Shown here piece by piece: positions 17,650-57,140 of a stretch of DNA of 64,000 nucleotides. Origin of the DNA: Mesotaenium endlicherianum (lineage: Eukaryota); the NCBI GenBank assembly GCA_009602735.1, contig WELA01001243.1, positions 124,445 to 188,444 on the forward strand. The letters run 5' to 3'. The position numbers and the translations under genes are program-made. The notes below the pieces were generated by a model. The model was not told the DNA's origin. It saw only the letters and a list, made by a program, of their open reading frames with translations, and searched no databases. Position 1 is the first letter of the stretch. Every line of letters begins with the position of its first letter.

Positions 17650-17654
17650 CGTAG

Positions 17655-18597
17655 TTTTACGTTTCTGCTTTTCGAGAGGATCTTTCCTCGATATTCAAGG
17701 AATATTTAATTCAAGTGGAAGGAAAATCTGTATAATTGTGCAAATCGACGAATACTCGAAAGAGCGAAAATGTAAACTAACGTAGAATGTGTGCTTGTGA
17801 GAGTTGCACTCACAATGACTCTACAGGTATTTATACCTGCACAACATGAGGCACTGGAGTGCTTCGAGTCACCACCTAGGGCACTGGTTTATGTTCAACG
17901 AAAACGGTCGAAGGGATGTGTCCCATTTGGCCGAATGCTCAAAACGCGCCGTTTGGCGGTTTGGAGACTTTTCAATGGTTTTCAGAAAACCGGTTCGCGC
18001 CAAACGGGCGTTTTCGCGTTCTCGCATCTTTTCGAAAAGTCGCGACTGTTCGCAGAGTCGCGTTCATAGGATTACGTCATGAACCAGGAGTTACGAATAA
18101 CTACTTGGCCAATTGGTTTAGGTGTGAACGTTTCAAACGACAAGTCGCGGGTTCGAATCTGCGTCGATGCAAAGCGACTTTGCATATTTCGTTTCGTTTG
18201 TCTTTACGGCGATTTGTTCGTATCTTGATACGACGATTTGTTCGTATTAACGACTGGTCGTAAATTCGAAATCTGTGATTGTGCATTGTCGAAATAATGA
18301 CAATCAAATCAATTTAATCAATCAATGATTTAATAAGTTATCATCTCATAATTAATCAAAGTAACTTTATGAATATTTATGTCGTACTTTTGCGAAGTAG
18401 TCGAGTTACGTTACGACGCTTTTTGCAATAGTATGTCGGTCGTTTCGCCAATCGACCAGGAATTAATCGGCACACACGTGTGGCAAATAATTGAATATGA
18501 TGCAATCATTTATCAAATAATATGATGAATAGTATAACGTACTTTAGGTAATTGGGAAAACATCCCAAATACGCCTAAAATAGCTCGGATCGTTACA
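17655..18597. mobile_element. Solo LTR, family E (943 bp, AT-rich)
   Basis: Perfect 5-bp TSD CGTAG at 17650-17654 and 18598-18602; right end CGTTACA, left end decayed TTTTACG. Confidence 0.8.
18104..18171 (+). promoter_or_regulatory. tRNA-like internal Pol III promoter (A box and B box) inside LTR E
   Basis: A-box-like TGGCCAATTGG at 18106-18116 and B box GGTTCGAATC at 18150-18159 at tRNA spacing; T-arm-like stem CGCGG/CTGCG. Confidence 0.5.
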
Positions 18598-24967: not shown

Positions 24968-26686
24968 CACATTTATAGACCTCAACATAATAGCTCAATC
25001 GACGCGTAAGAAGGTAAGAAAACGTACAATCAGTGAAGGCAACCTTGCAACACTTTGCAATCCGGTTCCGTGTGTCTCCTGCAAAGTTATGTGTATGTTT
25101 TACTCAACAGCTTCTATTTGCTCAATGTTCTCATATCTTGCGCAATTCTATCCACATATTCATGCAACCTGCACAAGCTTGCAACGCTATATCAAATGAT
25201 TTCCCTAACTTCATGTACTTCCACATATTCAGGTTTAATACGGCTATGGATGAGTACAGCGATGCATTCTTCAAGCCTCTTTCCGTCACCGACTTGCAAC
25301 AGGTGGGTTCCTTGTTCGCTTTACACCCATACTTCAGACTTTGCTGTGTGCTAATATGCTTTTTGGTACTTCTCTAAGTTTGTGTTTGTTGGCCTTTGGT
25401 GTCCTCACATTGCAGATCTTTTGTGGAATAGATGGTACCTTCCTGCCGGTCAATGCTGCTGTATTTAAACAGTATATTGGATAGATATAATATTCATTTA
25501 GATATAATAGTTATATAAGTTCAGCGCGCTGAACTTTAATTAATATTACTTCTGCTGGATAATTGATACTTAGTTAAATGACTCTGCCGGGAGCAGCAGG
25601 CTGAAGTCCATTAGATCAGCCTGTTGACTTGGATCAGCTTGCTGACACATTCTTCGACAGTCAGTTGGCTGCCGTACTTGGCAGCAGCGAACTGCTGTCG
25701 TGCCTAACAGTGTCGGTCCCTCGGCACGTGCGTGGCCTTTCAGCACGTGTGCCTTCGACCTGGTCGATGTGTCGGTGGCCCTCCTCACGTGCGGGCAAAC
25801 ATGGTCAATCGATCTTTGCAAGTGTGTCGGTGACAAGCCTTACCAGGGTTAACCCATCCCTGGGCTCCTGAACTTGCACCATGCAACCAAGACCAACTCT
25901 CGGGACTTTGTTCTACTTTACTCAGCCCTCACCATCTGCTTTATCTTAAGCCTTAGCAGAAAATTTGAAAATACTTGCCTTTGCCTTAATTTGTAATGAA
26001 TCAGTATATTAGTCGATATAAAATTCCTTTAAATATAATAGTTAATTAAGTGCAGCCTGCTGAACTTTAGTTAATAGTCAGTCTGCTGGACTTTACATAA
26101 TTATCAGTTTGCTGACTCAGTCGAAAGCAGCAGGCTGAAAGTCCATATAAGTCAGCTTGCTTCCGTACTCGGTAGCAGCGAATTGCCTTGATATGCATCT
26201 AAGTGCGATATGCTAGATGAATAGCCAGATGACATCCCTATGATGGATGGCTATTCGGGATGATGGGAGATGGCAGTGGATTTGGTTAACCGAGGTCCTA
26301 CCAACGTGGTTAACTCCCGGGTAGGCGGTGCCATCGCACTGACCGTTGAACAGTAAACTCATTCCATGTACATACGCTAGGCATTGCTCTCGAGTTCGGC
26401 ATTCGGAAACGAGGCCAACTCTCTTGTACAGCTTACTGAGAGAGATCTGAATCCAAGGCGAGAAGCCATTGATACGCACTGTCTTCTAACCTTGCTTATG
26501 TATGAGTTTACTGATTTGCATTATTGATGCTAGTTTACTCGCATTTGACTTACGAGTATTATTCACTGCTAGTGTGTTGTCCTTTGCCGTTTAACCAGTT
26601 AACGGAAAATACCATAAAGATTACTTGCTGATATAAAGATCTTTATTAATTGTTAATCGCCTATTTGGTAAGTCGATTCATTTCAG

Positions 26687-26698
26687 TGGTATCGGAGC
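26687..26698 (+). promoter_or_regulatory. Primer binding site, initiator tRNA-Met type
   Basis: TGGTATCGGAGC, 1 nt after the LTR; differs by one base from the usual plant iMet PBS TGGTATCAGAGC. Confidence 0.9.
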
Positions 26699-26719
26699 AG
26701 TTATCACAGGTATCTTTGT

Positions 26720-28199
26720 ATGGTAAGGACAAGGTCTCAAACTAGCAACTCCCGAGACATGGAGAACCAGGATAACGAGAATGTCAAAAACCAGGCGGAA
26801 AGCCATGTAGCGGGAACCCGTACCTATTCTGAAGCAGTGGCAGATACTGCAGCTAGGGAGGCTGCAGATGAGGCAGCTGCTATTGCCGCAGTCGCAGCAC
26901 AGCAAGCTGAGGAGGAGAGAGCCAGATTAGAAGCTGAACAATTAGCAAAGGCCGCTGAAGATACAGAAAGGAGGGAAGGACAGCCAGCTGACGAGCGCAC
27001 TGTTGAAGAACTTATGGCATCAAGGGCCAATGTTCTGAAACCACCTCCTGCCGTACAACTCAATGTACCCCTAGGCTAAATACGTGACCGGCTGAATGCG
27101 GCAGGAATTGCTGCTGCAGGAGCAAGAGGGATTGTTGAGGACACTACTCAGCGAGTAGATGCCAATGCTGCTGCTGCATTTGCTAATCTACCACCCCAGA
27201 GTGTAGACTTGGGAGCATTGTTCGTTCAGATGCAGTCGCAAATGGCGACCATGTATCAGTCCCAGCAGGAGGACAAAAGAATCATAATGTCCCTACTCCG
27301 GGACAGAGACCAACTGGGGTCTCACATCACTAGTGGTGGTGGCCGAGGGCCTAGTAAGCCCAAGCCAAAACCTCCCCAGGACTATGATCCTGAGGGAAAC
27401 AGGAAAATATTACCTGATCAAGTTTCTCGCGGATGTTGAGCAGTGGCTGGAGAACTACCCAGAACTGCAAGATTACGAGAAGGTCAGGCACACCGGTGCG
27501 CTACTGAAAGGCAGTGCCGCAGACTGGTGGCTTTACTGGAAGGAAGAGCGTAAGGCTCGGCAACTCGGTGACCCTACGTGGGTAGAGTTTGTCGAGAAGT
27601 TGCATGAGAAGTTTGATGTCATCAACCAGCAGGAGAAAGCTATCTATGCGATGATCTCCCTGACACTGAAGCAGACCACTTCAGTTGCTGAGTTTGCTCA
27701 AAAGTTCCAAGAGAACATGATGAAGCAGCCTGATTTGCCAGAACGGTATAGGATAGCATACTTCAGGTATGGCTTGAAATCCGAGGTCTCTGGTCATTTT
27801 GCTGAGAAAAAGTATGAGAAACTGGCTGACTTGATCCAGGATGCTGACGCCTGGGATCAGCAGCAGTTCAATCACAAGCGCCAGAGTAACGCTTTGGTGT
27901 CTAAGATTGTCAAAAAGCCCCACGGTTCCTACAATGCAGTTGAAGGAGACCAGGCTGAGGATAATCAGGGTGATGAATATGAGTATGAGTACAATGCTAT
28001 TCAGTCTAGAGGTAGAGGTGGTCCCTCTCGAGGTGGCTATGGAAGGGGTGGTGGTAGGACTAAGCCGAGACCAGCCTCAGCAAAATCTACTTGCTACCAT
28101 TGTCAGCAGAAAGGCCACTACAGAGAACAGTGTCCGGTCAAGCACCTGCCTAAGGTCGAGAGAAAAGACCAGCCTTTAAAAGACAGCAACAGTCAGTAA
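26720..28199 (+). pseudogene. gag of family A (one premature stop, one frameshift)
   Basis: TAA at 27077 (CAA in the copy at ~36884); frameshift near 27400; LKGSAADWW capsid motif; knuckle CYHCQQKGHYREQC. Confidence 0.9.
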
Positions 28200-28216
28200 T
28201 CCAGTCTACTGACTGT
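28175..28216 (+). promoter_or_regulatory. -1 programmed ribosomal frameshift signal (gag to pol)
   Basis: Slippery heptamer T TTA AAA at 28175-28181 in gag phase; 7-nt spacer; perfect 10-bp stem ACAGTCAGTA/TACTGACTGT; the -1 frame is open into pol. Confidence 0.85.
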
Positions 28217-28267
28217 GAGGATGCTAGAGATAGTGAGTCGTCACTAGCTGCCCTCGTAGCAGGTATT

Positions 28268-31200
28268 ATGGGTCCTGCTGAACTGGATTCACTATGCATG
28301 CCTGACAAACAGATAAAGGAGACCATCAGTAATATAGACGTCCAGAGAGTGCACACTCTGGATGCTCTTGTTCCACCTGATGTCCAACATTTCTTTGCTA
28401 CGTCAGGAGAACAATGCGAAAGTCAGGAAAAGACAGTCCCCCCTATCCTACTGCATTGCATGATTGCAGGTAGGAAGGTGAGGGCATTTGTTGACGGAGG
28501 GGCGTCACATACTTTTATTCACAAGGACTTAGTTAAGCGGCTAAGGCTGCCTACTGTCACCCAAGGGAATAGAAAAATATTCCTTGGAGATGCCTCAAGT
28601 ATCCCGGGAGGAGTTATAACCAAGCCTATTGAGGTCCAGTTAGGTTCTGGCATTGCAGTTCTAACTGAAACGCTTACATTTGAGGTACTCAACACTGGCT
28701 TTTATGATCTCGTGCTAGGCAGGTCCTGGCTTAATAGACATCAAGCTGAAGTGTGTTGGAGCAGAGGTACAGTTAAAGTGAGAGGAGCCAGTGATGGGCA
28801 GACTGACTTGGCACCCACCAGTGCTCTTCCTCTTGTCCTGTGTGGATGGCAAATGAAGGAAAAGAAGAGGCTTCCAGAAGGATGCAAGTTGCTGAATGCA
28901 ATGGAGTTCGTCAAAAGCTGGAACCAGAAGGAAGACAGAATGTTCTGTCTGCTGCTAAGAGAGGTACCTCCTCAACCTGAAGAAGTGGTTGAGAAAAAGG
29001 TAAGCCCTCCGGAGCACCCTACTGCTGCAAAAATTGTTGCTCAGTACACTGATGTGTTTAACATGCCTCCAGGACTACCCCCTAAAAGGGAAGTAGATCA
29101 TAGGATTGATCTATTACCTGGTAGCCAGCCACCCTGGCAACGCACTTATGGCTTGTCTTATTTGGAGAGCGAGGAGTTGAAAACACAGATTGCAGAGCTG
29201 GAGGAAAATGGTTACATTTCTCCCAGTAAATCACCGTACGGCGCACCTATCCTATTTGTTAAGAAAAAGGATGGCAGTATGCGGATGTGTGTGGATTACA
29301 GAGCCCTGAACAGAATTACAGTAAAGAACAAGTATGCTTTACCCAGAATCGAGGACTTGCTTGATACCCTGTCTGGCGCTAAGGTGTTCAGTAAGATAGA
29401 TCTCAAGAGTGGTTATCATCAAATCAGAATTGCTGAGGGGGATGAACACAAGACTGCTTTCCGCACACGTTATGGACACTATGAGTTCAACGTGATGCCA
29501 TTTGGACTGACTAATGCTCCTGCTACCTTTATGGGTGCTATGAATGACATTTTCAGACCTTATTTGGATAAGTTTGTGCAAGTTTTCCTGGATGATATTT
29601 TAATTTTCTCTAAAGATGAAGCTCAGCACACTGAACACTTAAAGAAAGTGCTGGACACTCTGCGGAAAAATCACTTGTATGCTAAAATGAGCAAGTGTGA
29701 TTTCTTTAAGGAAAGTATTGAATTCTTAGGCCACGTTGTCAGTAAAGAGGGCATCAGTGTGGATCCTAAGAAAGTCCAGACCATAAGGGACTGGCCAGTA
29801 CCACAGTCTGTCTCTGAAGTTAGATCCTTCCTCGGGTTGGCTAACTACTATAGGAGATTTATTGAGAATTATTCCACAAAGGCCAGTAAACTGACTGACC
29901 TTACTAAGAAAGACATCGGGTATGTGTGGGGGGAAGAGCAGCAGGCTGCCTTCCAGACCCTTAAAGATGCCCTTTGTTCTGCCCCAGTGCTAGCCGTGTA
30001 TGACCCCAGCAAACCGGTGCAGGTGGTTACTGATGCCTCTGATTTTGCCATGGGTGCTATTTTGTTGCAGCCTGCTGACAAAACCACAAAGGATGGTAAG
30101 GTACGGCAGGAGTGGCATCCTGTGTTGTATGAGTCTATGAAATTTAATCCAGCGGAGATTAATTACTCAGTGCATGATAAAGAGCTGCTAGCTATCATTC
30201 ATGTACTCAAACAGTGGAGAGCATACTTACATGGTAAAGCTTTTAAGGTGATTACAGATCATCTAGCTCTGACCCACTTTCAGAAGAAGTCCAAGCTGTC
30301 GAGGAGGGAGAACCGCTGGAGCCAGATGCTGGAGCAGTTCCAAGTCCAGATCGACTACAAACCAGGGAAGTTGAATCCTGCTGATGCACTCTCTAGAAGA
30401 CCTGACTTGCAAGAAAGGAACTTTAGTCAGCATGCTGTAGATAAAGTCCTGTGTGCACTCACTTCACTAAAGGTGAAAAAGTCCTTCCTTGAACAACTTA
30501 GGAAAGCCTACCTTTCTGACCCAACATTTGAGCCCAGCCCCACTACTGGTGTGTGTCGTGCTACTGCACTCGGGTATAAGCTCAAGGGAGGGGTCTGGGT
30601 GACTGAAACCACTTCAGGCAGGCTGAAGCTGGTCATTCCTAATAATTTGGAAATAAGGTCTCTCTTACTGAGTCAAGCTCATGACAGTCTCCTGGGTGGA
30701 CATTTGGGGCAGGCCAAAACTGTTGGCAAACTGGCAAAACATTATCATTGGGAGGGGTTACCCCGGGAGGTCTTGAAATATGTCAAGTCCTGTGACCAGT
30801 GTCAGAGAAATAAGTCTCGGCACACACCACCCGGAGGTCTCTTGCAACCGCTACCCATCCCAGCGGGACGCTGGGAAACTATATCCATGGACTGGGTGGT
30901 CTCACTACCAAGAACTGCCAACGGGCATGATTCAATACTGGTAGTCGTGGATAAACTGACAAAAATGGTCATTTTTATCCCCACAACTGTCAAAGTGACT
31001 GCACTCGAAACAGCGAGACAGTTTTACAACCATGTAGTATGCCAACATGGGCTCCCTTCTAATATCATCTCAGACAGAGACTCAAAATTCACCTCTAAGT
31101 TCTGGAGAGCTTTAATGGGGTTAATGGGAGTCAAACAGCTGCTCAGCACAGCAAACCACCCTCAGACTGATGGGCAGACTGAAAGAACTAACCGAGTTCT

Positions 31201-31984
31201 GCAGGAGGTGCTGAGAGCATATATTAACCAAAAACAAGATAATTGGGATGACCTGTTGCCTCAAATTCAGTTTGCGGTCAACAGTGCGGTGCACGCGTCA
31301 ACGGGCAAAACTCCTTTTGAACTCAGCCTGGGTAGAGTCCCTAAGTCTCCTCTAGATGTGCTAGGGGAATCTTTAACTCACCCTGAAGGGATTGACAACC
31401 CGGTCTCCCTCCAGTTAACTCAGGAGTTTGCTGACACCCTGTCAGAAGTCCAACGAAACTTGCACACGGCCCAAGAAAACCAACAAAAATACGCTAATCA
31501 ACACCGTCGGGAACTGACATTTTCCAAGGGGGATTTAGTCAAACTGCATTCTCAGCACCTGTACCTCCCTGGTGTGGTCAAGAAAAAGCTTGGCCCTGTC
31601 TGGGTCGGTCCATATTCGGTGGTCCGTCGTGTCGGTCAGAATGCTTACAAACTGAACATGTCAGCTGAATACAAGGGGCACCCGGTCTTTAATGTCTCCT
31701 TCCTGGAACCGTACATCAAAGGTGATACACTGTTCACAGGTCGGTTCCCTGTCCAACCGGGACCGGTCCCCGCTGTCCGGGACGGCGACCCTGAGGAATA
31801 TGAGGTCGATGAGATTTTAGACGCTCGCTCGGTCCGTCGATCGTCTAAATATGTCATGAAATACCTCATTCGATGGAAGGGTTACGATGCCTCTGGGGAC
31901 ACTTGGGAGTTTAAGGACCACTTGACCAATGCCAAAGGGGCGTTGACACGGTTCCACCTTCGGGCCGCTGGAGTCCCTCCATAA
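28268..31984 (+). CDS. pol polyprotein: protease, RT, RNase H, integrase, chromodomain
   Basis: [46 protein letters not shown]-terminal YEVDEILD...YLIRWKGY...DTWE chromodomain; uninterrupted 1238 aa. Confidence 0.97.
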
Positions 31985-32251
31985 CTGTCATTTCAGTTGA
32001 CACGGGAAGGTGACAGGCGGTCCTGTCTCCATTTAAGTTGGAGGGGAAAATATATGACAGTTAGTGAGCGAGAGCGATAAAAACACACTCATACGTTTAT
32101 GTGTAGCGCATCGCAACTACGTCAACTTTTAGCAATCATCCTGTAAGGTAAACAGCAGCGAAGCCACTATACTAAATACTAACATACTTCCTGCAATCCC
32201 TATGACAAAGGTCCATATCCTACTAACTTGTGCCCTGGTTACATGTGCAGG

Positions 32252-33928
32252 ATGGCGCCCACCACACAAAAGGAGGACAGAAAGCGCAAGGCAGAAGAAG
32301 CCAGGAGGACAATGGAGCAATACCAGAAGGAGCTGGCGGCGACGTCCCTCACCAGGAGAGAACAAGAAAGGGTCCGCAAACAACAAGAGGCGGCAGAAGA
32401 GGCACAGAGGAAGAAGGATCAGGAAGCGGAAAACCTCAGGAAGGCTGAGGAGGAGAGACAGAAGAAACAGCAAGAAGAAGCGGCAGCGGCAGAAGAGGAG
32501 AAAAGAAAAAAGATTGAAGCGGACAGACAGAAGAGCTTGGCCACTTACAGGTATACTGTGGTGGGTGGCCAAAACTTCGATAACCTGAAGGAAGCATTGC
32601 TGGCAGCCCAGGAGATCAACAGGCTGGAACAGACAACACTGCTACAGAAGGAAGGAGCTACAGCACTGGACAGGTACATCGAGACACACACCGGCGTGGT
32701 CCTTTACGAAGATTATGCTAAGATGGTGGGCTATACAGCAGAGCAGGCCCGGTATCTCGCAGATGATTCAGAGGACAAGCCGGTCCCCATACCGGGAATA
32801 GTGGGAGATCAGAGACTCATCCGGATGGTGAGCATGCGGCCCGATAGCTTTACGGATACGGTATTCTACCTCACACTCTTGCCAGCTTACAATGAAGTTG
32901 AGAGAAGGAGCTGGGAGTACTTGGCCAGGGAAGCAGGACAGCAGATGTTCTCTCCCCACTGGTTCCCGTGTAAACTGAGGAAGGCTGAGCACGGACCCCA
33001 GTACTACCAGCAGCCAACAGACTGGAGGTGGATGACCGTCACAAATAAGAAGCAGGAGTGTGACCGAGCCCAACCGGATGACTTCCACTATGGCCTAGAC
33101 GGCTATCTCATCCTACCACCTCACATTGCCCCTTGGGACCCCAGGCTGAATGGATGCCTGAGCAATATGAATGCAGAGACCAAGGAACATAGGAGGAGGG
33201 GAAGAGACTACTTCTCTAAGGGAAAGCATGCCTTTGTCAAATGGGCAAAGAATGCAGGCCGGATAGATATCAGTAGGCTGAAGGCCAAGCAACCTCCAGC
33301 GCGCCCTAAGAAAGGGAGGTCGGTAGACTACTCCATGTCTACTAGGGAGCAGGACGACTTAGTGGACGAGACCCCTACTCTCTCCGAGGAGGAGGATGAG
33401 GAGGATGAGGAAGAAGAACAAGGCAGAGGAGAAGCATCAGCAGCAGGTACTCAGGATACCCAGGGACAGGCAGTGGCACTTCCTAAAGAACCACGATCAG
33501 GTGTGTGGAATGTGATCCCCGTTATGGCGACAACTGGACCCCGCGCTCGCTCCCCCAGCCCACCTGCCCAAGCAGGGGAAGAAGCTGATCTGACTGTACT
33601 GGGCAGCAGACACAGACAGAAATCCCCAGAGGACAGGGGTGCCAGAAGAGGGACACGCGGGTGGGCCAGAGGTATGCCAGCCTCCCCCTCCGCTCAGGGG
33701 CATGTACCTCTAGCCAATGTATTTCAGCATCCTACTTGAATGCCTGTCTATGTGGGAATCAACACCCAAGTGGTTGAAGAGCAGGCCACCATCCTCCGTT
33801 CTCCTCGAGGGCCAACTTTAGAGCAAACAGGGTTCTTTAGAAGGCCAGCTGACAGACCTAGAGGGCTGTCCAGATCTAGGTCCAGATCTCCGTCTCCTGA
33901 CCCTGAAGCCCCAGGAACAACCCCTTGA
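32252..33928 (+). CDS. Accessory ORF3 of family A, unknown function (in-frame TGA at 33737-33739 probably premature)
   Basis: ATG at 32252 directly after a CAG|G acceptor; charged coiled-coil-like N-terminus, aromatic-rich middle, acidic run, SRSRSRSPSP tail. The homologue at 41059-41601 reads through the stop position (QHPSVMPVYV vs QHPT*MPVYV). Confidence 0.8.
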
Positions 33929-36900
33929 GGTGACACGCTGACGAGACAGTCAGTAAGGGAGGCTGGTCAGGTTCAGTTCCCTTATTTAAAATTTCTGCAG
34001 TTTAATGTTGTCGAGGCGACAACAAGTTAAGTTGGAGAGATTGTAATGAATCAGTATATTAGTCGATATAATATTCATTTGAAAATAATAGTTAATTAAG
34101 TTCAGCCTGCTGAACTTTAGTTAATAGTCAGTCTGCTGGACTTTACATAATTATCTAAGTTTGCTGACTCAGTCGAAAGCAGCAGGCTGAAAGTCCATAT
34201 AAGTCAGCTTGCTTCCGTACTCGGTAGCTGCGAATTGCCTTGATATGCATCTAAGTGCGATATGCTAGATGAATAGCCAGATGACATCCCTATGATGGAT
34301 GGCTATTCGGGATGATGGGAGATGGCAGTGGATTTGGTTAACCGAGGTCCTACCAACGTGGTTAACTCCCGGGTAGGCGGTGCCATCGCACTGACCGTTG
34401 AACAGTAAACTCATTCCATGTACATACGCTAGGCATTGCTCTCGAGTTCGGCATTCGGAAACGAGGCCAACTCTCTTGTACAGCTTACTGAGAGAACTCT
34501 GAATCCAAGGCGAGAAGCCATTGATACGCACTGTCTTCCAACCTTGCTTATGTATGAGTTTACTGATTTGCATCATTGATGCTAGTTTACTCGCATTTGA
34601 CTTACGAGTATTATTCCCTGCTAGTGTATTGTCCTTTGCCGTTTAACTAGTTAACGGAAATACCATAAGATTACTTGCTGATATAAAGATCTTTATTAAT
34701 TATTAATCGCCTATTTGGTAAGTCGATTCATTTCATAATTCCTCTTACAAGGACGGAAGTCTCTTACTTCCACATAGGCTTTATGCCTTAAAGTTCTTGG
34801 GTTCACAGCCGAGCAAATTGTAGTTTGCAGAAATCACACTCTAAGCAGCTTGACATACAACGTCAGGTTCAGAGAAAATTGCCCTTCAGGTTTTCGCTTA
34901 ACTTTCACAAGTCACAGCTTACAAAACTCTGAAACTGCACGTCTATGCTGGCGTGGGTCAAGCTCTTCACTTAACCTCGTGCCTTAACAGCTCTTCACTG
35001 CCAGGCTGGGCTCACTCAGTTCTTCACTGAAAGCTTTATCTGTCAATACTACTCTCTCTCTTCGAGATGCGAATGCGACTTCTGAGAACCTGGAAACTAA
35101 CACACAACTCACCATTTTAAGGCTGCTTCACACACACTTGTGGCGTTCGACCGAATCTGTGCTAATCTCCTAGCAGATTCTATTCTGCAGTTCTCCTGTT
35201 GTCAACAGTGAGATTCCCTCTTGGGAACTCCTACAATCCTAACTTATCTACGATACACTGAGAAGAATCTTCAGCGTCGGCAGAAGCGTGGGGCCTCGGC
35301 CCTCCAATGGCCTTGGGAACTCCTTCTTCTTCGCGCCCTTCTTCTCCTTCCTTTTAATTCTTCTGCTTCTTGGCAAAAGTGCGTGAGAGTGAATGACATT
35401 TCTCAGGCAAGGTTCGTGCCTTTCGCAAGCACCACACAGCGTCATCCTTCGAGAATGCCGTGCTTAGTGACAAAGCTTAGCTGCATGTCGCTTCTGCCTA
35501 GCCATGCTCAACTCAAACTCGTAGTCACTTAGCATGCATGCACACCTCGTGACTGTCGCGCGTGGCTGCTTAGCTTCTCAGCTAGCAGTCACGCCTAATT
35601 GGCTCGTGGCTAAGAACTCCTGCACGGTGTGTACAAGCAGATTCCACTTGCTCAAGATTCCCACTCGGGCGGCCGTAATCTATCTTGGCATTGCGGCCAT
35701 GACCTAGCTTCATCTGCCAGTCACACAGTACTGGACTTGGTACCTGCTGGGCGGCTCATCTCTGATCCCCAGCTTCTAGTCTCACGGCTGTCTATGTTGT
35801 CAAAACCTCCTCCATTCTTGGGTGTGGGGCACATTGACATTGACCCTTTGCCAGTGGTCTCGATGCTGACATAACCGCTGACTGCGACGAAATCAGTCAA
35901 GTGGTCGGTGAGTCAACGTTGACTTTCCGTACCTGGGTGGCCGTAGCTTGCGCTGCGCGTGCGGCACCGTCAAACGGATAGTCGTCGCGACACTGCTGAG
36001 TCATGCATTTAAGTGTGGTGTGCTATATGAGTGGCCAGATGACACCCTTAAGGTGGATGGCGATTTGGGATGATGGGAGATGGTTGTGGTTGGTTAGCCA
36101 AGGTCCTACCAACGTGGTTAACTCTCAGGTAGGCGGTGCCATCGCACTTGCCGTTGAACAGTACACTCATTCCATGTACATATGCTAGGTATTGCTCTCG
36201 AGTTCAACATTCGGAAACGAGGCCAAGTCACTTGTACAGCTTACAGAGAGAGATCTGAATCGAAGGCGAGAAGCCATTGATATGCACTGTCTTCTAGCCT
36301 TGCTTATGTATGAGTTTACTAATTGCAATATTGATGCTAGTTTATCTGCATTTGACTTGCGAGTATTGTCTACTGCTAGTGTGTTGTCTTTCGCTGTTTA
36401 ATCAACAAACTGAAAATACCATAAAGATTACTTGCTGATATAAAGATCTTCATTAATTGTTAATCGCCTATTTGGTAAGTCCATTCATTTCAGTGGTATC
36501 GGAGCTGTTATCACAGTCTTCCTTGTATGGTAAGGACAAGGTCTCAAATTAGCAACTCCTGAAACATGGAGAACCAGGATAATAAGAATGTCGAAAATCA
36601 GGCTGAAAGCTATGTAGCGGGAACCCGCACCTATTTTGAGGCAGTGGCAGATACTGCAGCTAGAGAGGCTGCAGATGAGGCAGCTGTTATTGCTGCAGTC
36701 ACAGCACTGCAGGCTGAGGAGGAAAGAGTTGGACTGGAAGCCGAACGATTAGCAAAAGCTGCTGAAGATACAAAACGAAGGGAAGGACAGCCAGCGGACG
36801 AGCGCACTGTCGAAGAACGTATGGCAGCAAGGGCCAATGTTCTGAACCCACCTCCTGCAGTACAACTCAATGTGCCTCTAGGTCAAATTTGTGACCTGCT

Positions 36901-39900
36901 GAATGCGGCAAGAATTGCTGTTGCAGGGGCGAGAGAGACTGTTGAGGTCACTACTCAGCGGGTGGATGCAACTGCTGTTGCTGCATTTGCTAGACTCCCA
37001 CGTCAGAATGTAAATTTAGGAGCATTATTTGTGCAAATGCAATCGCAAATGGCGAGCATGTATTAGTCCCAACAGGAGGACAAAAGAATCATAATGTCTC
37101 TGCTGCGGGACAGAGACCAACTGGGTTCACAAACCACTGGTGGTGGTGGCAAAGGGCCTAGTAAGCCTAAGCCAAAACCTCCCCAGGACTATGATCATGA
37201 GGGAAACAAAAAGTATTACCTGATCAAGTTTCTCGCTGATGTTGAGCAGTGGCTGGAGAACTAGCCAGAATTGCAAGATTACGAGAAGGTCAGGCACACC
37301 GGTGCGCTACTGAAAGGCAGTGCCGCGGACTGGTGGCTTTACTGGAAAGGCGAGCATAAGGCTCGGCAACTCGGTGACCCTACGTGGGTAGAGTTTGTCG
37401 AGAAGTTGCATGAGAAGTTTGATGTCATCAACCAGCAGGAGAAAGCTATCTATGCGATGATCTCCCTGACACTGAAGCAGACCACTTCAGTTGCTGAGTT
37501 TGCTCAAAAGTTCCAAGAGAACATGATGAAGCAGCCACATTTGCCAGAACGGTATAGGATAGCATACTTCAGGTATGGCTTGAAATCCGAGACCAACTGG
37601 GTTCGCAAACCACTGGTGGTGGTGGCAAAGGGCCTAGTAAGCCTAAGCCAAAACCTCCCCAGGACTATGATCATGAGGGAAACAAAAAGTATTACCTGAT
37701 CAAGTTTCTTGCTGATGTTGAGTAGTGGCTGGAGAACTACCCAAAATTGCAAGATTACGAGAAGGTCTAGCACACTGGTGCTCTACTGAAAGGCAGTGCA
37801 GCAAACTGGTGGCTGTATTGGATAGGAGAGCGTAAGGCTCAGCAACTCGGTGACCCTACTTGGGTAGAGTTTGTCGAGAAACTGCATGAGAAGTTTGATG
37901 TGATCAATTAGCAGGAGAAAGCTATCTATGCAATGATCTCCTTAACACAAAAGCAGACCACTTCAGTTGCTGAGTTTGCTCAAAAGTTCGAGGAGAATAT
38001 GATGAAGCAGCCAAATTTGCCAGAGCAGTATAGGATAGCATACTTCAGGTATGGCTTGAAATTCGAAGTCTCAGGTCATTTTGCTGAAAAGAAATATAAG
38101 AAACTGGCTGACTTGATCCAAGACGCTGATGCCTGGAATCAGCAGCACTTCAATCACAAGCGCTAGGGTAATGCTTTGGTGTCTAACCTTTATGGGTGCT
38201 ATGAATGACATTTTCAAACCTTACTTGGATAAGTTTGTGCAAGTATTCTTTGATGATAGTTTAATTTTCTTTGAAAATGAAGCTGAGCAATGTGAGCACT
38301 TAAAGACACTCGTGGACACTCTGAGAAGGAATCAGTTATATGCTAAAATGAGCAAGTGTGATTCCTTTAAGGAAAGTATTGAATTCTTGGACCACGTTGT
38401 CAGTAAGGAAGGCATCAGTGTGGATCTTACGAAAGTCCAGACCATAAGGGACTGGCCAGTACCACAATCTGTCTCGAAAGTTAGATCCTTCCTTGGATTG
38501 GCTAACTACTATAGGAGATTCATTGAGAATTATTCTACAAAGGCCAGTAAACTGACTGACCTTACTAAGGACATAGGGTATGTGTGGGAGGAAGAGCAGA
38601 AAGCTGCCTTCCAGACCCTTAAAGATGCTCTCTTTTCTGCCCCAATCTTAGCTGTGTATGACCCCAGTAAACATGTGCAGGTGGTTACTGATGCTTCTGA
38701 CTTTGCCATGGGTGCTATTTTATTACAGCCTGCTGACAAAACCACAAAGGATGGGAAGGTAAACCAGGAGTGGCACCCTGTGGTGTATGAGTCTATTAAA
38801 TTCAATCCAGCTAAAATTAACTATTCCGTGCATGATAAAGAGCTGCTTGCTATCATTCATGTGCTCAAACAGTGGAGAGCATACTTACATGGTAAGGCTT
38901 TTAAGGTGATTACAGATTATCTAGCTCTGACTCACTTCCTGAAGAAGTCTAAGCTGTCCAGGAGGGAAAATCTCTGGAGCCAAATGCTGGAGCAATTTCA
39001 AGTCCAGATTGACTACAAACCAGGGAAGTTGAATCCTGCTGATGCACTCTCTAGACAATCTGACCTGCAAGAAAGGAACTTTAGTCAGCATGCTGTAGAT
39101 AAAGTCCTTCGTGCACTCACTTCACTAAAGGTGAAAATGTCCTTCCTTGAACAACTTAGCCTACCTTTCTGACCCAACATTTGAGCCCAGCCCCACTGGT
39201 GGTGTGTGTCCTGCTATTGCACTCGGGTATAGGCTAAAGGGAGGGGTCTGGGGTAACTGAAACCACTTCACGCAGGCTGGAGCTGGTCATTCCTAATAAC
39301 TTGGAAATAAGGTCACTCTTGCTGAGTCAAGCACATGACAGTTTACTGGGTGGGCATTTAGGGCAGGCCAAAATTGTTGGCAAACTTGCAAAACATGATC
39401 ATTGGGATGAAATACCTCGAGAGGTCTTGAAATATGTGGTCAGTGTCAAAAAAATAAGTCTAGGCACATACCACCCGGGGGGCTATTATAACCACTACCC
39501 ATCCCAGCTGGACGCTGGAAAACAATATCCATGGACTGGGTGGTAATATTTCCTGGAACTGCCAATGGGCATGATTCGATACTGGTAGTAGTGGATAAAC
39601 TGACAAAAATGGTCATTTTCATCCCCACCACTGTCAAAGTAACTACAGTCGAAACTACGAGACAGTTATACAATCATGTAGTATGCCAACATGGGCTACT
39701 CTCTAATAATATCTCAGACAGAGACTCATAATTTACCTCTAAGTTCTGGAGAGCTTTAATGGGGTTAATGGGAGTCAAACAGCTGCTCAGCACAATAAAC
39801 CTCCCTCAGACGGATGGGCAGATTGAAAAAACCAACCGAATTTTGCAACAACTAATGAGAGCATATATTAACCAAAAACAGGATAATAAAGATGCCCTGT

Positions 39901-42533
39901 TGCCTCACATTCAATTTGCGATCAACAGCGCGGTGCATGCGTCAACGGGAAAGCCTCCTTTTGAACTTACTCTGGATAGAGTCCCCAAGTCCCCTTTAGA
40001 TATACTAGGGGAGTCTTTAACTCACCCTGAGGAGATTGACAATCCGGTGTCGCTCCTGTTAACTCAGGAGTTTGTTGACACCCTATTAGAAGTCCAACAC
40101 AATCTGCACAAAGCCCAAAAAAATCAACAAAATTACGCTATTCAACACCGTCAGAAGCTGACATTTTCAAAGGGCAATTTGGTCAAACTGCATTCTCAAC
40201 ACCTGTACCTGCCTGGTGTGGTCAAGAAAAAGCTTGGTCCGGTCTGGGTCGGTCCATATATGGTGGTGCGCCGTGTCGGTCAAAATGCTTACAAACTGAA
40301 CATGTCAGCTAAATACAAGGGTCACCCAATCTTTAATGTCTCCTTTCTGGAACCATACATCAAAGGTGACACACTGTTCACAGGTCGGTTACCTGTCTAT
40401 TAGGACCGGTCCCCGCTGTTCGAGAAGGTGACCCTGAGAAATATGAGGTTGATGAGATTTTAGAAGCTCGCTCTGTCTATCGATCATCTAAATATGTCAT
40501 GAAAAATTTGGTCAGATGGAAGGATTACAATGCCTCTGGGGACACCTGGAAATTTTAGGACCATTTGACCAATGCCGAAGGGGCGTTGTAACGATTTTAC
40601 CTTTGGGAGGCTGGGACACCTCTCTAATTGTCATTTCAGGTGACATGGGAAGGTGACAGGAGATCTTGTCTTCATTTAAGTTGGAGGGGAAATGTGGCCA
40701 AACGTGGCCTAAAGTGACAGTTAGTGACGGAAAGTGACAGTATTTGACAGGGAGTGACAGTTGTGACGGGCAACCCAGTGACAGCTGAAACGGGCAACCC
40801 ACCTCAAACATTAAGTTGGAGGGAGTGGGATAAATATCTCAAAAACTAGCCGATTATCGATTGCCGTTGCATATTCATCCGTGACACTCAATTGCGCTCA
40901 CACTCACTTCTCTCTCTAGGAACACTTGCCCTTTCAATTCACTTACACCAGGTATTGCATGTCCTAACTCCCTCTACTACGTTCTTCCCTGTCAAAGTAC
41001 TCAATCCTGTGCATGATATCATGACTACACTAACCCCATTGTGGTATGAACGAGCAGGATGACTCAATTGTTTGAACTCAAGAGAAAAAGAAGGGCGGAC
41101 GAGGCACAAGCGGAGTACAAGGAATTCCATGTCGACATCAAACCATCCTCCATCTCTTCTCCAAAATCAGAGCGACTCCAACTACAGCGGAAGGCTCAGA
41201 AGAGGAAGGAGGAGGAGGAACAGGCCAGGTTGAGACAGGAAGAGCAGAACAAAAAAGCTGCAGAGAAAGCCAAGAAGGCGGAGGAACAAAGGTTTGCTGA
41301 GGAGAGGCAGAAGCAGCAGGTTGAGGAGGAACATAGGAGAATCAAAATCTACTGCTACACGGTGATGGGCAAGGGCTTTGACAAAGCTGACAGAAGGGCT
41401 GCCAAGGAGGCAGCCAGAGGGCAACCAGCATCTCCCTCTCATAAAGGGCATGTACCATTAGCTCATGTCATGCAGCACCCCTCCGTTATGCCAGTGTATG
41501 TCCTTGCCAGTTTGAGAGCTGCACAAGAGAGAGCGGTCTCCATCAACTTGCAGACAATGCAAGAGCAGGCTGCCCAGTTGCTGCGTTCACTCCTCGGTTG
41601 ACCCTGGTCTAAGCCTCCAGGTTTCAGGAGACTATCAGATAGGAGAAGCAGATCCGGTTCCAGGTCTCGCTCCCCAGAAGACCGAGCCCCTGGTACTTAG
41701 TTTGCTGTTGTCTTTGTTTTAAGTTCAGTTGATTGTGTTGCATGTGTGTTACTTGGCAGTAAATAATATAGAAGTGTTGTCTAGTCGACAACAATTTAAG
41801 TTGGAGGGATTGTAATGAGTCAATATATTGGATAGGTATAATATTCATTTAGATATGATAGTTAAATAACTTCAACCTGCTCAACTTTAGTTAATATTAA
41901 TTGTGCAGGATAATTGATACTTAGTTAAATGACTCAGCCGAGAGTAGCAGGCTGAAGTCCATTAGGTCAGCCTGTTGACTTGGGTCAGCTTGCTGCCACA
42001 TTCTTTGACAATCAGCTGGCTGCCGTACTCGGCAGCAGCAAACTGCCTAGCTATGCATCTAAGTGTGGTCTGCTAGATGAGTGGCCAAATGACACCCTTA
42101 AGGTGGATGGCGATTCGAGATGAAGGAAGATGGTTGTGGATTTGGTTAGCCGAGGTCCTACCAACGTGGTTAACTTCCGGGTAGGCGGTGCCATCGCACT
42201 TGCCGTTGAACAGTAAACTCATTTCATGTACATATGCTAGGTGTTGGTCTCGAGTCCAGCATTCGAATACGAGGCCAACTCCCTATTGAGATATATTTGA
42301 ATCCAAGGCGAGAAGCCATTGATACGCACTGTCTTCTAGCCTTGCTTATGTATGAGTTTACGGATTGCATTATTGATGCTCGTTTACTTGCATTTGACCT
42401 GCGAGTATTGTCCACCGCTAGTCTGTTTGTCTTTGCTGTTTAATCAGATAACAGTAAATACCATAAAGATTACTTGCTGATATACAAATCTTCATTAATT
42501 GTTAATGGCCTGTTGGAAAGTTGATTCATTTCA

Positions 42534-43990
42534 ACCATGCCAGGACCCCACAAGCCGTCTGACTGAGGTCAAAAGGCATAGGAGGAAGGTTGGCTAACAA
42601 AGGTAGGGAAAGCACGGCGTGGCTAAGTGGGGAGGTTTAGCGAGCATTGGGAAGGGTGATTGGGTAAAAGACAGGCATAGGAAGGAGGTGGGAGGGAAGA
42701 ATAGTAGTGACCAGCTGACGGTGGGGCCAGCTGTGGACGGCCAGGGCGGCAGCGTGAAGATCGGGTTGAGGTGCGAGGTTGGTCCAGTAGATGCGGGAGC
42801 AGGGGGCGTAGGCCCCAACAGCGGTAGCGTCAAGGAGAACGCCAGGGCCGAGGATGGCAGTGATGTAGGCGAAGTCAGCACGGACATTGGCGCGGCGGTC
42901 GTCTCCAGAGGGGACGTTGTCAAGCAAATATGCAGGAGAAGGTAAAGGACCGACCTGGAGCACCTGGAGAATGCCAATGAGCTCATGGAAGAGACGAGAG
43001 CGAGGATCAGCAAGGCCAAGGCCGTGGCTGGCCTGAGAGTGCCCTTGGCACTTCCAGTCGGCCACGACCAAATCAATGTGCCCTAAGGGCAGAAGGTTGT
43101 CGGGGTCGAGCAGGCGAATGTCTTGGGGTAGGGCGGCATGAACGGAGGCATAAGCAGTGGACGAGAGGAGGGTGGGGAAGTGTGTAGTGAGCAAGCGGAG
43201 ATGGTGATAGCTAGCAGCGCGTGCAGTAGGGTCCTGATCACAGTAAAAGTAGCGGTGAATAGGGATGTTGTTATGCAACAATGCAGCGATTGGTGTGGAG
43301 AGGCCTGCGAAGAGGTTGAGCACAACGAGGCCTTGAGGAGGGACTGTGAGTGGGTGGAGAGTGATGTCAAGGGTGCTTGGAAGAGATGATGGGGGAGGGG
43401 GGAGAGGGGGCAAAAGGGCAGGGTAGGCCAAGGCATATTCAGCTTGGGTGTGTGCGGCGCGCAGATGGGTGGATGGTTCATAGATGGCGACGCATGCATG
43501 GACATAGGTGACTGAAGTAGCAGTCTGGGCTGATGTGGCTGCAGAAGGTGTGAGAGTAAGGTGCATAGGCAGGTAACCGACATGTTGGCCCACGCCATGC
43601 AATTTGACTCGGTAGTGTGCTTGCTGAGTCCACGAGTCAACGGTGAGGCCTAAGGGCAAATTAAACTTCCGACTTAGTAAAAGATCGTAAGAGGTTGCAT
43701 CAGTGATGACACACTGGGCGAACAAGGTGACAGCGTCCTGGGCGCCAGGGTTAAAAAAAGATGGCCAGGCGACGTTTAGTGAGGTGCACTGGTTGGGTAG
43801 AACTTTTGAGCGCAGTGGCCATGTGCAAGTCACTATTGATCATGTCTGCGCCAGTAAGCCCCAGTAACTGGCAAAGGCGCGCCGAGCAAAACGGGCTGGG
43901 CGCCGGTGTCAATGACGACCAGGCCAGGGGCGACGCCGCTGACTGTGACCACAGCACGGGTGTTATCTACACGTGCATTCGACGGACGGA
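42534..43990 (-). pseudogene. Second, divergent protease plus C5 DNA methyltransferase fragment of a Gypsy-type pol
   Basis: LVVIDTGAQPVLLG protease; motif I VVLNLFAGL; IV HIDLVVADWKCQGHS; VI YLLDNV; VIII LDATAVGAYAPCSRIYWTNL; RRAFPTFVS; truncated by LTR A at 42533. Confidence 0.88.
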
Positions 43991-44034: not shown

Positions 44035-45074
44035 GGCTGAGAGCTGCAGAGGAGAGGGCTATCTCCATCAACTTGCAGACTGTGCAAGAGGAGGCTACCT
44101 AATTGCTACGTTCTCCTCTCGGTTCACCTTGGTTTGAACCCCCAAGTTTCAGGAGACCACCAGGTAGGAGAAGAAGGTCCAGGTTCAGGTCCCGCTCCCC
44201 AGAGGATAGAGCCCCTGGTACTTAGTATGCTGATTGTCCTTGTTTAGAGTCAGTATGCTCTAATGTGCATGTTTTTTACTTTGTTGCAGTCAAATAGTTA
44301 ACAGGTGTTGTTTAGTTGACAACAATTGAAGTTGGAGGAATTGTTATGAATCAGTATATTGGATAGATATAATATTTATTTAAACATAATAAATAAATAA
44401 ATTCAGCCTGCTGAACTTTAGTTAATATTGAGTCTGCTGGATTTTTAATACTTCATTCAGTGACTGAGCTGGGAGAAGCAGGCTGAAATCAATTAGGTCA
44501 GCCTGTTGACTTAGGTCAGCTTGCTGACACATTCTTTGACAGTCAGCTGACTGCCGTACTTGGTAGCAGCGAACTGCCTAGTTATGCATCTAAGTGTGGT
44601 GTGCTAGATGAGTGGCCAAATGACACCCTTAAGGTGGATGGCGATTCAGGATGATGGGAGATGGCTGTGGATTTGGTTAGCCGAGGTCCCACCGACGAGG
44701 TTAACTCCCGGGTAGGTGGTGCCATCACACTTGCCGATGAACGGTAAACTCATTCCATGTACATATGCTAGGTATTGCTCTCGAGTTCGGCATTCGGAAA
44801 CGAGGCCAACTCTCTTGTACCGCTTACTGAGAGATATCTAAATTCAAGGCGAGAAGCCATCGATGCAAACTGTCTTCTAACCTTGCTTATGTATGAGTTT
44901 ACTGATTGCATGATTGATGCTCGTTTACTTGCATTTGACTTATGAGTGTTATATACTGCTAGTGTATTGTCTTTTGCTGTTAAATCAATTAACAAAAATT
45001 ACCATAAGAATTACTTGATGAATAAAGATCTATTATTAATTGTCAATCGCCTATTGGTAAGTCAATTCGATTCA
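44035..45074 (+). mobile_element. 3' end of another family A element (ORF3 tail, purine tract, LTR 44342-45074)
   Basis: 44035-44341 parallels 41510-41810; followed by an LTR A copy. Confidence 0.85.
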
Positions 45075-45145
45075 CCAACCGACCCACAATACATGTCAAC
45101 ACATGGATGGGTATTTTTGCACGTGCCCACCTTAGGGCCCAAAAT

Positions 45146-47065
45146 TGCCTCCTTAGGCTCATAATGCTTTTGCACAGGGATTTGCCACTCTTTCACCAGC
45201 TTCTTGTGCACAAAGTTTGCACTTGCGCCACTGTCGACCATACACTTCGCCTTGTTGCCGTCGACCGCTCCTTCCACGATGATAGGCTTGTCAACGTCTC
45301 GTCTTTTGCTTCTCGGCAGGCTCCTGGGGATAACCTCCTTGTGAGTTCTCGTCTTCACGCCAGTAGACACCCCAGAACGACTTACTGGCGTCCTCCTTTT
45401 TCCTGCTGTTGAGGTTGCTTCGCCTTCACATGACAGTCTCGAGCCAGATGTCCAAGCTTGCCGCAATTATAGCAGGGTCCTCTCGGCTTGAAATTCTGCT
45501 GCCTGCGCTGGTACTGCACAAGTCCCAACTCCATGGGTACTGGACCTTGAACACTCGTGCTTGGCGCTTGAGATCCAAAGTGTCGATATCCTCCAAAGTT
45601 GTGGCTGCCCCACTGCCTCTGACTATACTCCACGGCGTCGACCCTTGTTGCCAATGCCATCATTTCTCCAAGACTGGTAGGGTCCTTGAGCGCCACTTCC
45701 TTGGCCACAGTTGGCTTGAGTTTCCTCTTGAACTTGTCCATCATCTCTGACTCGTGCATGGATGGGCATTGAAGCACCAGCTCGTTGAAGCGCGAAACGT
45801 ACTCCTGAACGCTTGCTCGTTGACGAAGGCGCACCAATAGATCTCGAGCGGTAGCCTCGGGCGCAATAGGTTTGAATTGCCTCTTCAAGCCTTCAAAGAG
45901 CTGATCAACAGTAGCAGGAACTCCAGACAACTGCTCTTCTCGTTCATACCAAGCTCCAGCACTCTTCTGCAGCAAAGTTATGACAAAGGCGACTTGCCTG
46001 TCGGGCGTGAGCGCAGAATACTCCATAAACTTCTTCACTCCAAAAATCCATTGATGAACAGGCGGCGATCCACGCTCTCCAGTATAAACTTCAGGCTTAG
46101 GCGCACGCACTCCTGATGCGGGTGGAATAACTGGTTGCACCACTGGGTTAACATGAATCGGTGGTACAACAGGTGCAGGTGCCGAACTCGTCGAAGCGGC
46201 GTTCCCCATAACAACTCGCACCATTCTCTCCACCTCCGCGCGCATATTTTGTTGAAACTGGGTGTAGACTTCTCCTCCAATTGCATTTGCCATTTGCCTT
46301 AGCATCGCCTGCATCTCTTGTTGCTCTCTGGTCATTGTTGGTGCTGCCTGCTGCCCCGCGCGCTCAACATGCTCGACATGTTCGCCTCCTCCAGCTGCCG
46401 GCTGCGACTCCATAATATAATATGCAAACTAGCCCTGCTCCGATACCAGATGAAAGGGGCAGAGTGCCCTAGTGGAAGCGTAGTGACTCACGAGGAAAGG
46501 AACTAGTTGCCATCATACTAGAGAGTGCAGCGGCATATCACTAACAAAGCTTAGGAAAATTACTCAACATTTTGAGTAGCAGGAAACTGCTCACAAATGA
46601 TGTAGGATGAAAGGCCTTGTCATTACAAACCCGTAGAAATTTACAAAAGTGAAAACTGTTGAGAAACAAAGAAGTTATGCCTATTTATAATTTTCTGCCT
46701 AAGTGCTCCTCCCTAGGAGGAAGCTACGGATTTTTCCTAAGTGTTCGTCAAATCGTCCCTTCCAGAATATTCGTGAGTAAGCCAGATCAGTCTAATCTGA
46801 CGTGTCGCGCCGAATTGACGTCCACATACATGCATCGACATTACTAGAATATTCTATCTTAGACGCGCTAGGCTAAACCAAAACTTCTAGGTAAATCGAC
46901 CTAGTCGGCACTCCGCGTCAGCCGAACTTACGTGAAGGTTCGAGTTCATTCTAACGGGCCAGATCGCTCGACGCTGTCGGTCAATCCGACGGTCGCGCTC
47001 ACCGCGAATTAAGGACAGTCGTCAACCGACCTCAAAACTAATTAAACTTCGGAAATCCGGAACTC
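45146..47065 (-). mobile_element. Truncated family B element: partial LTR 46451-47065, PBS, intact gag, protease start
   Basis: Near-identical to 56880-58810; PBS TGGTATCGGAGC on the minus strand at 46437-46448. Confidence 0.9.
45382..46413 (-). CDS. gag, family B (343 aa)
   Basis: LLQKSAGAWY, LRQRASVQEYVSRF, GPVPMELG, knuckle CYNCGKLGHLARDC. Confidence 0.93.
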   Translation of the reverse strand: MESQPAAGGGEHVEHVERAGQQAAPTMTREQQEMQAMLRQMANAIGGEVYTQFQQNMRAEVERMVRVVMGNAASTSSAPAPVVPPIHVNPVVQPVIPPASGVRAPKPEVYTGERGSPPVHQWIFGVKKFMEYSALTPDRQVAFVITLLQKSAGAWYEREEQLSGVPATVDQLFEGLKRQFKPIAPEATARDLLVRLRQRASVQEYVSRFNELVLQCPSMHESEMMDKFKRKLKPTVAKEVALKDPTSLGEMMALATRVDAVEYSQRQWGSHNFGGYRHFGSQAPSTSVQGPVPMELGLVQYQRRQQNFKPRGPCYNCGKLGHLARDCHVKAKQPQQQEKGGRQ

Positions 47066-57000: not shown

Positions 57001-57140
57001 GACCACTCCTTCCACGATGATAGGCTTGTCAACATCTCGTCCTTTGCTTCTCGGCAGGCTCCTGGGGATAACCTCCTTGTGAGTTCTCGTCTTCACGCCA
57101 GTAGACACCCCAGAACGACTTACTGGCGTCCTCCTTTTTC
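54058..57140 (-). pseudogene. pol of family B: protease, RT, RNase H, integrase, chromodomain (disrupted)
   Basis: [31 protein letters not shown] and DDE; YEVEAIVD...YLVKWKGY...NTWEP. Stop at 56019-56021, lesion near 55765, assembly gap at 56668. Confidence 0.92.

Follow-up and report, generated by a model that had tools for sequence, protein, structure and literature searches.

A very probable leader intron before the third gene of an algal chromovirus, kept in most DNA copies and sometimes precisely absent

Directly before the start codon of the third open reading frame (ORF3) of an LTR retrotransposon in the alga Mesotaenium endlicherianum stands a segment of 103 nt with the signals of an intron. 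Is this segment spliced, and if so, how does it persist in an element that multiplies through RNA? We analysed the 64,000-nt stretch of contig WELA01001243.1 that holds the element (the window, in whose coordinates all positions are given), a repeat-rich stretch of eukaryotic genome.

The carrier, element 1 (25992-34735), is a full-length chromovirus-type Ty3/gypsy LTR retrotransposon of a zygnematophycean alga, made up as follows.

25987-25991 and 34736-34740: left and right copies of the 5-bp target-site duplication
25992-26685, + strand: 5′ LTR, with TG...CA ends, 97.4% identical to the 3′ LTR
26687-26698, + strand: primer-binding site, which we take to be of the tRNA-Met type
26720-28199, + strand: gag, with Ty3 capsid and CCHC knuckle
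28154-31984, + strand: pol, open over 1276 aa, with protease, RT, RNase H, integrase and chromodomain
32034-32050, + strand: internal duplicate of the polypurine tract, directly 3′ of pol, where the alignment between subfamilies ends
32051-32147, + strand: putative ORF3 promoter (TATA-like GATAAA at 32076, found by eye) and 5′ exon
32148-32250, + strand: very probable GT-AG intron of 103 nt in the ORF3 leader
32252-33739, + strand: ORF3, 495 aa
33740-33928, + strand: 62-codon in-frame continuation past the ORF3 stop, RS/SP-rich and homologous to the 3′ ends of copies 2 and 3
34028-34041, + strand: polypurine tract
34042-34735, + strand: 3′ LTR

The assignment to the chromoviruses rests on LTR, domain-order and chromodomain criteria, and element 1 shows the TG...CA LTRs, the 5-bp target-site duplication, the domain order and a chromodomain at the integrase C-terminus (PF00385, E 2e-8) whose Y-W-Y aromatic cage is intact by the criteria outlined in PMC3350952. 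Its closest named pol relatives, from Closterium and Haematococcus, are 48-53% identical. The type of primer-binding site argues against the self-priming Tcn1 as described in PMC6317226. The pol gene lies in the −1 frame relative to gag, and a T-TTA-AAA slippery heptamer in their overlap (28174-28180, gag frame) suggests −1 frameshifting. Relative to most contigs from the sequencing runs, the gag of element 1 is broken near 27077 and 27402.

The window also holds a degraded second element with its own candidate intron, and a third fragment.

36003-40692, + strand: element 2, with gag, pol and part of a 5′ LTR; gag and pol match element 1 at 88-90% identity
40952-41057, + strand: candidate GT-AG intron of element 2, 106 nt
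41059-41601, + strand: ORF3 of element 2, 180 aa, with N- and C-terminal parts homologous to copy 1 and the centre absent
41797-42533, + strand: polypurine tract and 3′ LTR of element 2
44040-45074, + strand: third fragment, with ORF3 3′ end, polypurine tract and element-2-type LTR, without the intron region

Element 2 carries a 476-nt tandem duplication and a large pol deletion. Its alignment with element 1 ends exactly at the internal polypurine tract and resumes at the 3′ end of ORF3. Copies of the polypurine tract stand behind pol in both elements, once in copy 1 (32034-32050) and twice in copy 2 (40677 and 40812), in addition to the true tracts at 34028 and 41797. Candidate readings of an ORF3 module bracketed by such tract copies are a second plus-strand origin and a point of module swapping.

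A second chromovirus family lies on the − strand at 45026-46428 and 54058-58045; behind its pol, a purine tract and LTR follow almost at once, leaving no ORF3. Two further − strand stretches in repeat-rich DNA, 16207-17694 and 42637-43839, match C-5 cytosine methylases (E 7e-10 and 7e-4). These ORFs are possibly carried by another retroelement, and the second of them interrupts a fragment of the ORF3-element family. On the + strand, 60660-61502 is a host ORF resembling soluble pyrophosphatase.

The splice signals given in the preliminary description proved correct to the base in both copies. In copy 1, AAG is followed by GTAAAC at 32148, TACTAAC at 32221-32227, TGCAG ending at 32250, a single G at 32251 and the ATG at 32252. 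In copy 2, CAG|GTATTG stands at 40952, CACTAAC at 41028, and AGCAG ends at 41057, again one G before the ATG at 41059. Both copies show U2-type features, with a GT donor and a branch site 15-35 nt before a YAG acceptor. The only two perfect TACTAAC motifs of the window both lie inside the copy 1 intron, the additional one, overlooked in the preliminary description, at 32177-32183, 29 nt behind the donor. A search of both strands of the 64 kb with AG|GTA-N50-130-RCTAAC-N12-35-YAG(G)ATG gave exactly two matches, the two introns, against a mean of 0.05 and a maximum of 1 in 100 block-wise dinucleotide shuffles; the pattern was written with both sites in view, so these odds are overstated.

Signals, length (103 and 106 nt) and position are thus kept, as had been described, while the interior differs. 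Shuffled sequences align as well as the two interiors do (p=0.21; p=0.076 for the whole introns), whereas the ORF3 N-termini of copies 1 and 2 are colinear from residues 9 and 8, with a score of 135 against 69±8 and no equal in 1000 shuffles. Since the N-termini are homologous, both start codons, and hence both introns, lie at the same place in two subfamilies. Within the family, the intron has 10 variant sites, all of them outside the 15 core signal bases, a distribution that is not significant (p=0.19), and 10 diverged contigs of run X1 align only from 32217-32220 onward, that is, from the branch site. The upstream TACTAAC at 32177 is altered in one subfamily and absent as such from copy 2; it is a candidate regulatory decoy.

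The host gene at 1-2755 (− strand), which is MFS_1-like and 100% identical to a protein labelled jgi/Mesen1, offers three introns for comparison, all long (470-740 nt), G+C-rich and without TACTAAC. The element introns are shorter than these three and have stronger branch sites.

The copy 1 intron contains one out-of-frame ATG (32202) and one in frame (32243). The intron of copy 2 contains four out-of-frame ATGs, and the 256 nt before its donor contain none. The 128-codon basic ORF that opens at the intron ATG at 32202 was rejected as a gene: it reads a purine-rich stretch in a shifted frame, copy 2 does not preserve it, and it matches no family.

If the segment is spliced, RNA or its reverse-transcribed copies should carry an exact joint between 32147 and 32251. 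We examined seven sequencing runs from 24 listed, five as contigs (X1, X3, X4, X8, X20) and two as raw RNA reads (X22, X23). The exact joint was present in contigs of two of the five contig runs, X1 and X20, from two studies, supported by one contig per run and for copy 1 only. This supports the preliminary description in taking the segment for a spliceable intron. In X1, which is DNA by a tool's guess, the joint (reported as 32145>32249, 103 nt, GT..AG at cut +2) has 23 letters on its shorter side and a depth of 473.5, making it the deepest of the 14 skip joints shown along the 8-kb element. In X20, whose library kind is unrecorded, its depth is 9.34 and its shorter side 30 letters. The joint was absent from X3, X4 and X8, where we found the retained form only, in contigs of a kind that drop rare variants. 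X8 is labelled as possibly RNA yet looks like DNA (flat depth, a 28.6-kb record), and was excluded as expression evidence.

Could the signals be relics or chance, and the joint a microhomology deletion or a contig artefact? The joint does have 3 nt of microhomology and stands on one contig per run, and the two runs recorded as RNA, X22 and X23, lend it no support. Some 200 further joints lie along the element in X1, and among those shown one is likewise GT..AG (28997>30256, 1258 nt, inside pol, one contig, depth 132); as an intron we rejected it, since it is probably a chance product among so many joints. Set against this, the joint at 32147/32251 falls on a boundary predicted beforehand, is the sole joint in its 291-nt stretch, is one of 262 possible deletions of 50-250 nt with at least 3 nt of microhomology in that stretch, and was found again in a second study. 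A second subfamily, in which the intron interior can no longer be aligned, moreover carries the motif as well. We regard an artefact or relic as very improbable, and hold with high confidence that 32148-32250 is a real intron.

How common are the intron-less copies? Single-copy depth in X1 was taken from 13 of the 16 listed pieces, with depths of 51-93 and a median of 68 (20.6, 232.5 and 524.8 were dropped). On this scale the joint corresponds to about 7 (5-9) single-copy equivalents, or 0.1-5% of the summed family depth, a range that depends on how far contig overlap inflates the sum. The search for intron-less genomic copies proposed earlier thus returned a small number of them, in a run that is probably DNA. 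It is very likely that spliced RNA is sometimes reverse-transcribed; the resulting copies may be full elements or retrocopies of a short message, both of which are compatible with the contigs. The claim that genomic RNA must stay unspliced accordingly holds for most DNA copies, which keep the intron (X3, X4 and X8 show nothing else), but not for the intron-less ones in X1, and 'must' softens to 'nearly always'.

Run X20 is probably an RNA run, because it does not sample the copies in the proportion expected of DNA: the variant at 32297, of single-copy depth 83 in X1, makes up 11.8 of 26.8 depth (44%) there, and the commonest type is a minority. The joint accounts for about one third of the forms across the donor in X20 (9.3 against 23.1), although it may stem from transcription of an already intron-less locus. 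The poly(A) runs X22 and X23, tied to the source by species label alone and read to 1.0 Gb (6%) and 1.8 Gb (12%), gave zero depth over 32179-33792. Of the proposed check, the joint itself thus appeared in the contigs of X1 and X20, and X22 and X23 yielded no ORF3 reads. Over the integrase end (30565-32178), most X22 reads have the first mate on the + strand, with depth up to 11 from diverged copies; if the library is of the usual stranded kind, this pattern suggests antisense RNA.

The comparable depths of spliced and unspliced forms in X20 would fit free splicing of the full-length RNA, with only the unspliced class being packaged, for example through a cis signal in the intron. BARE1 of barley is a precedent: some of its transcripts lose a short GT-AG intron (104 nt) that the genomic copies retain, and only unspliced RNA is packaged (facultative intron, TATA1 transcripts; PMC3735527). 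BARE1 also differs: it is a Copia element whose intron ends gag and whose spliced DNA copies could not be amplified, whereas the algal intron stands before a third gene and seems to have exact intron-less counterparts. A packaging signal would also hardly be expected to look like the present intron interior, which is unconserved between the subfamilies and unstructured. Selective packaging from separate RNA pools is, in our assessment, distinctly unlikely.

The next question is which message the acceptor at 32250 serves. ORF3 starts 267 nt past the pol stop, downstream of two short closed uORFs in the 5′ exon (32051-32147). The distance is too great for frameshifting or read-through, and with the uORFs it points to a separate message. 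ORF3 would thus need an mRNA of its own, with a promoter most likely between the internal polypurine-tract copy and the donor. TATA-like motifs were found by eye at 32076 and 40829; in one subfamily, seen in runs X1, X3, X4 and X20, an insertion of about 120 nt at 32080-32082 lies inside the former motif. On these features, ORF3 is likely to be expressed from its own mRNA, started at a putative internal promoter.

A message in the style of env would instead mainly use, with this acceptor, a donor close to the element's 5′ end, the local donor being minor. This is a known route for sense ORFs behind pol (Bagy2, in the account of PMC7264820; bdelloid ORF3s, in that of PMC5408684), and both copies preserve a GT donor-like site just after the gag ATG, at 26723 and 36530. 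However, the sole joint seen at acceptor 32250 uses the local donor, which is itself kept in both subfamilies; the 15 joints shown out of 207 include no long one, and none of the 13 loose ends shown out of 40 falls at 32250-32251. A splice from the gag ATG to 32251 would, moreover, leave that ATG out of frame with ORF3. We consider the long-distance route unlikely.

The preferred reading is that the leader intron is removed from a separate ORF3 message and mostly left in the genomic RNA, and that the intron-less copies which do arise are outcompeted; taken as a whole, we rate this mechanism as somewhat better than an even proposition. First introns near the cap are spliced efficiently, an effect of the cap-binding complex. 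In a short ORF3 message the intron would be the first and near the cap, favouring its removal, while in the 8-kb genomic RNA it would be far from the cap and mostly kept. Splicing would clear out-of-frame ATGs from the leader, and only one base would then separate the joint from the ORF3 ATG. The near-perfect branch site should nevertheless splice well anywhere, so that distance from the cap does not fully account for retention.

Loss of the intron would be one-way, with the few intron-less copies purged by selection. By calculation, a loss of 1% per cycle leaves the intron in 37% of copies after 100 cycles and in none after 1000 (14% at a loss of 0.2%). Persistence would therefore need both a low rate of loss and an advantage in cis of keeping the intron, plausibly the expression of ORF3. 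Such a cis advantage is implied by one-way loss combined with retention in two subfamilies whose intron interiors no longer align. Retention can be explained without a trans-acting regulator, either by inefficient splicing plus selection or by separate pools as in BARE1.

What ORF3 encodes bears on whether such a regulator exists. The protein has an RKRK motif, a charged, coiled-coil-like N-terminus, an aromatic-rich core and an acidic tract. Kept between copies are the N-terminal RKRK/RKRR, a charged helical region ending in YxYTVxG, a GHVPLA..QHP block and the RS/SP-rich tail, which occurs in three copies and is separated by a stop in copy 1. An env-like identity, which the position of a sense ORF between pol and the 3′ LTR would suit, was rejected: there is no signal peptide or transmembrane segment, and no hydrophobic segment at all, the highest 19-residue hydropathy being 0.59 in copy 1 and 1.03 in copy 2.

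Searches for relatives of ORF3 returned none. A word-indexed protein search with residues 90-350 (protein lengths 272-867) gave 0 of 3556 candidates, comparison with the Atlas gave no named match (best 0.84), pattern searches of metagenome and viral contigs gave 0 of 589 and 0 of 599, PDB sequences gave no match and Pfam nothing up to E 5. A single-sequence AlphaFold model had a pLDDT of 34.9 and no usable fold. ORF3 is thus an orphan in those protein, family, metagenome and structure-sequence searches.

Neither did more distant elements carry it. Among 79 metagenome loci with related integrases (34-48% identity), none had an ORF3 homolog, and in the 35 of these with at least 900 nt behind the pol stop, inspection by eye of the 45 nt before downstream ORFs found no branch-AG-G-ATG ending. 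At one such locus (L003:1515-4342) three sense ORFs of 299, 193 and 285 aa follow pol, with no LTR seen; by tblastn they are unrelated to ORF3.

The RKRK motif, the coiled-coil-like region and the RS/SP tail, read from the protein sequence, would indicate a nuclear protein, for which a role like that of CERV is possible. CERV, from the Ty3/gypsy element Cer1 of C. elegans, is likewise an orphan accessory protein and of similar size, about 500 aa (517; ORF3 has 495). It is made from a spliced message, as ORF3 probably is, but it shares exons with gag and is needed for export of the genomic RNA (PMC10309623), and family and sequence searches found no homology between it and ORF3.

On this precedent, the regulated splicing of complex retroviruses that the preliminary description proposed can be put in specific terms. 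ORF3 (or Gag) would act like Rev or CERV, blocking splicing or exporting unspliced genomic RNA. The leader intron would be a feedback sensor in a switch run by an independently arisen regulator: ORF3, produced only upon splicing of this intron, would in turn keep the intron in genomic RNA. The rare intron-less copies would be escape mutants. The absence of a membrane segment and the basic motif at the ORF3 start, with the coiled-coil-like region and RS/SP tail, are compatible with this, and active suppression is suggested by the strength of the splice signals next to a retention of at least 95% in DNA. Yet basic and RS-rich stretches are widespread in nuclear proteins, and ORF3 has neither a usable fold nor a family or sequence match to Rev, Rex, CERV or any other protein. 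On the RNA side, in both copies the intron with about 50 nt on each side folds no better than shuffles (z 0.25 and 1.08), and the intron region matches no Rfam family. With neither Rev or CERV homology nor structure around the intron, the claim of retrovirus-like regulation did not find support, and we judge such a switch quite unlikely.

How does this arrangement, a local leader intron of a third gene, compare with known elements (general background in PMC9289625 and PMC3350952)? The plant aORF-3S or eORF-3′F of Bagy2, Athila and SIRE are, as described in PMC7264820 and PMC6317226, also sense ORFs between pol and the 3′ LTR; they lack detectable homologs and are probably expressed from a spliced message. 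The same two sources tie eORFs mainly to SIRE and to non-chromovirus OTA elements. Here, by contrast, the carrier is an algal chromovirus, ORF3 lacks a membrane segment, and the intron is a short one in the leader with its own donor, not a long gag-pol intron. Maize Grande has an accessory gene between pol and the 3′ LTR, gene23, which is driven by an internal promoter of its own and encodes a nuclear product, but this gene is antisense, and the account in PMC7264820 describes no leader intron for it.

Facultative introns are likewise familiar. EVADE has one (PMC5580714, PMC7730604), and in Ogre, a Ty3/gypsy element of the Tat lineage, an intron between gag-prot and rt is spliced from a subset of transcripts and kept in the DNA; that intron gates the translation of pol, whereas the present one would gate an accessory gene behind pol (PMC6317226, PMC12786077). 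As in the intron-marked Ty1 reporter TyH3, exact loss of the intron marks passage through spliced RNA, but the TyH3 intron is engineered and efficiently lost, according to PMC12786077, and the algal one is natural and mostly kept.

In the literature that we covered we met no description of this element, nor of a leader intron of this sort with natural intron-less copies; the Ogre splicing paper may describe spliced genomic copies, and the eORF tables of PMC6317226 may also bear on novelty. Known, then, are spliced sense ORFs behind pol and facultative introns. New, against that literature, are the algal chromovirus as carrier, the local leader intron and the natural, exact intron-less copies.

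Intron retention through reverse transcription and the expression of orphan genes are open points for plant LTR retrotransposons. Export of intron-bearing retrotransposon RNA has not been studied directly in plants, as PMC12786077 puts it, and PMC7264820 calls for study of spliced aORF transcripts. The present observations extend spliced accessory genes to an algal chromovirus. They also make the family a countable natural assay, with an estimated hundreds of copies that have the intron and a handful that do not. The age and place of the intron-less copies would measure how frequently spliced RNA is reverse-transcribed and whether intron loss carries a fitness cost, and so distinguish passive inefficiency from active control. 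If ORF3 did prove to act like Rev or CERV, the algal sister group of land plants would possess, in this family, a naturally built-in reporter of retrotransposition.
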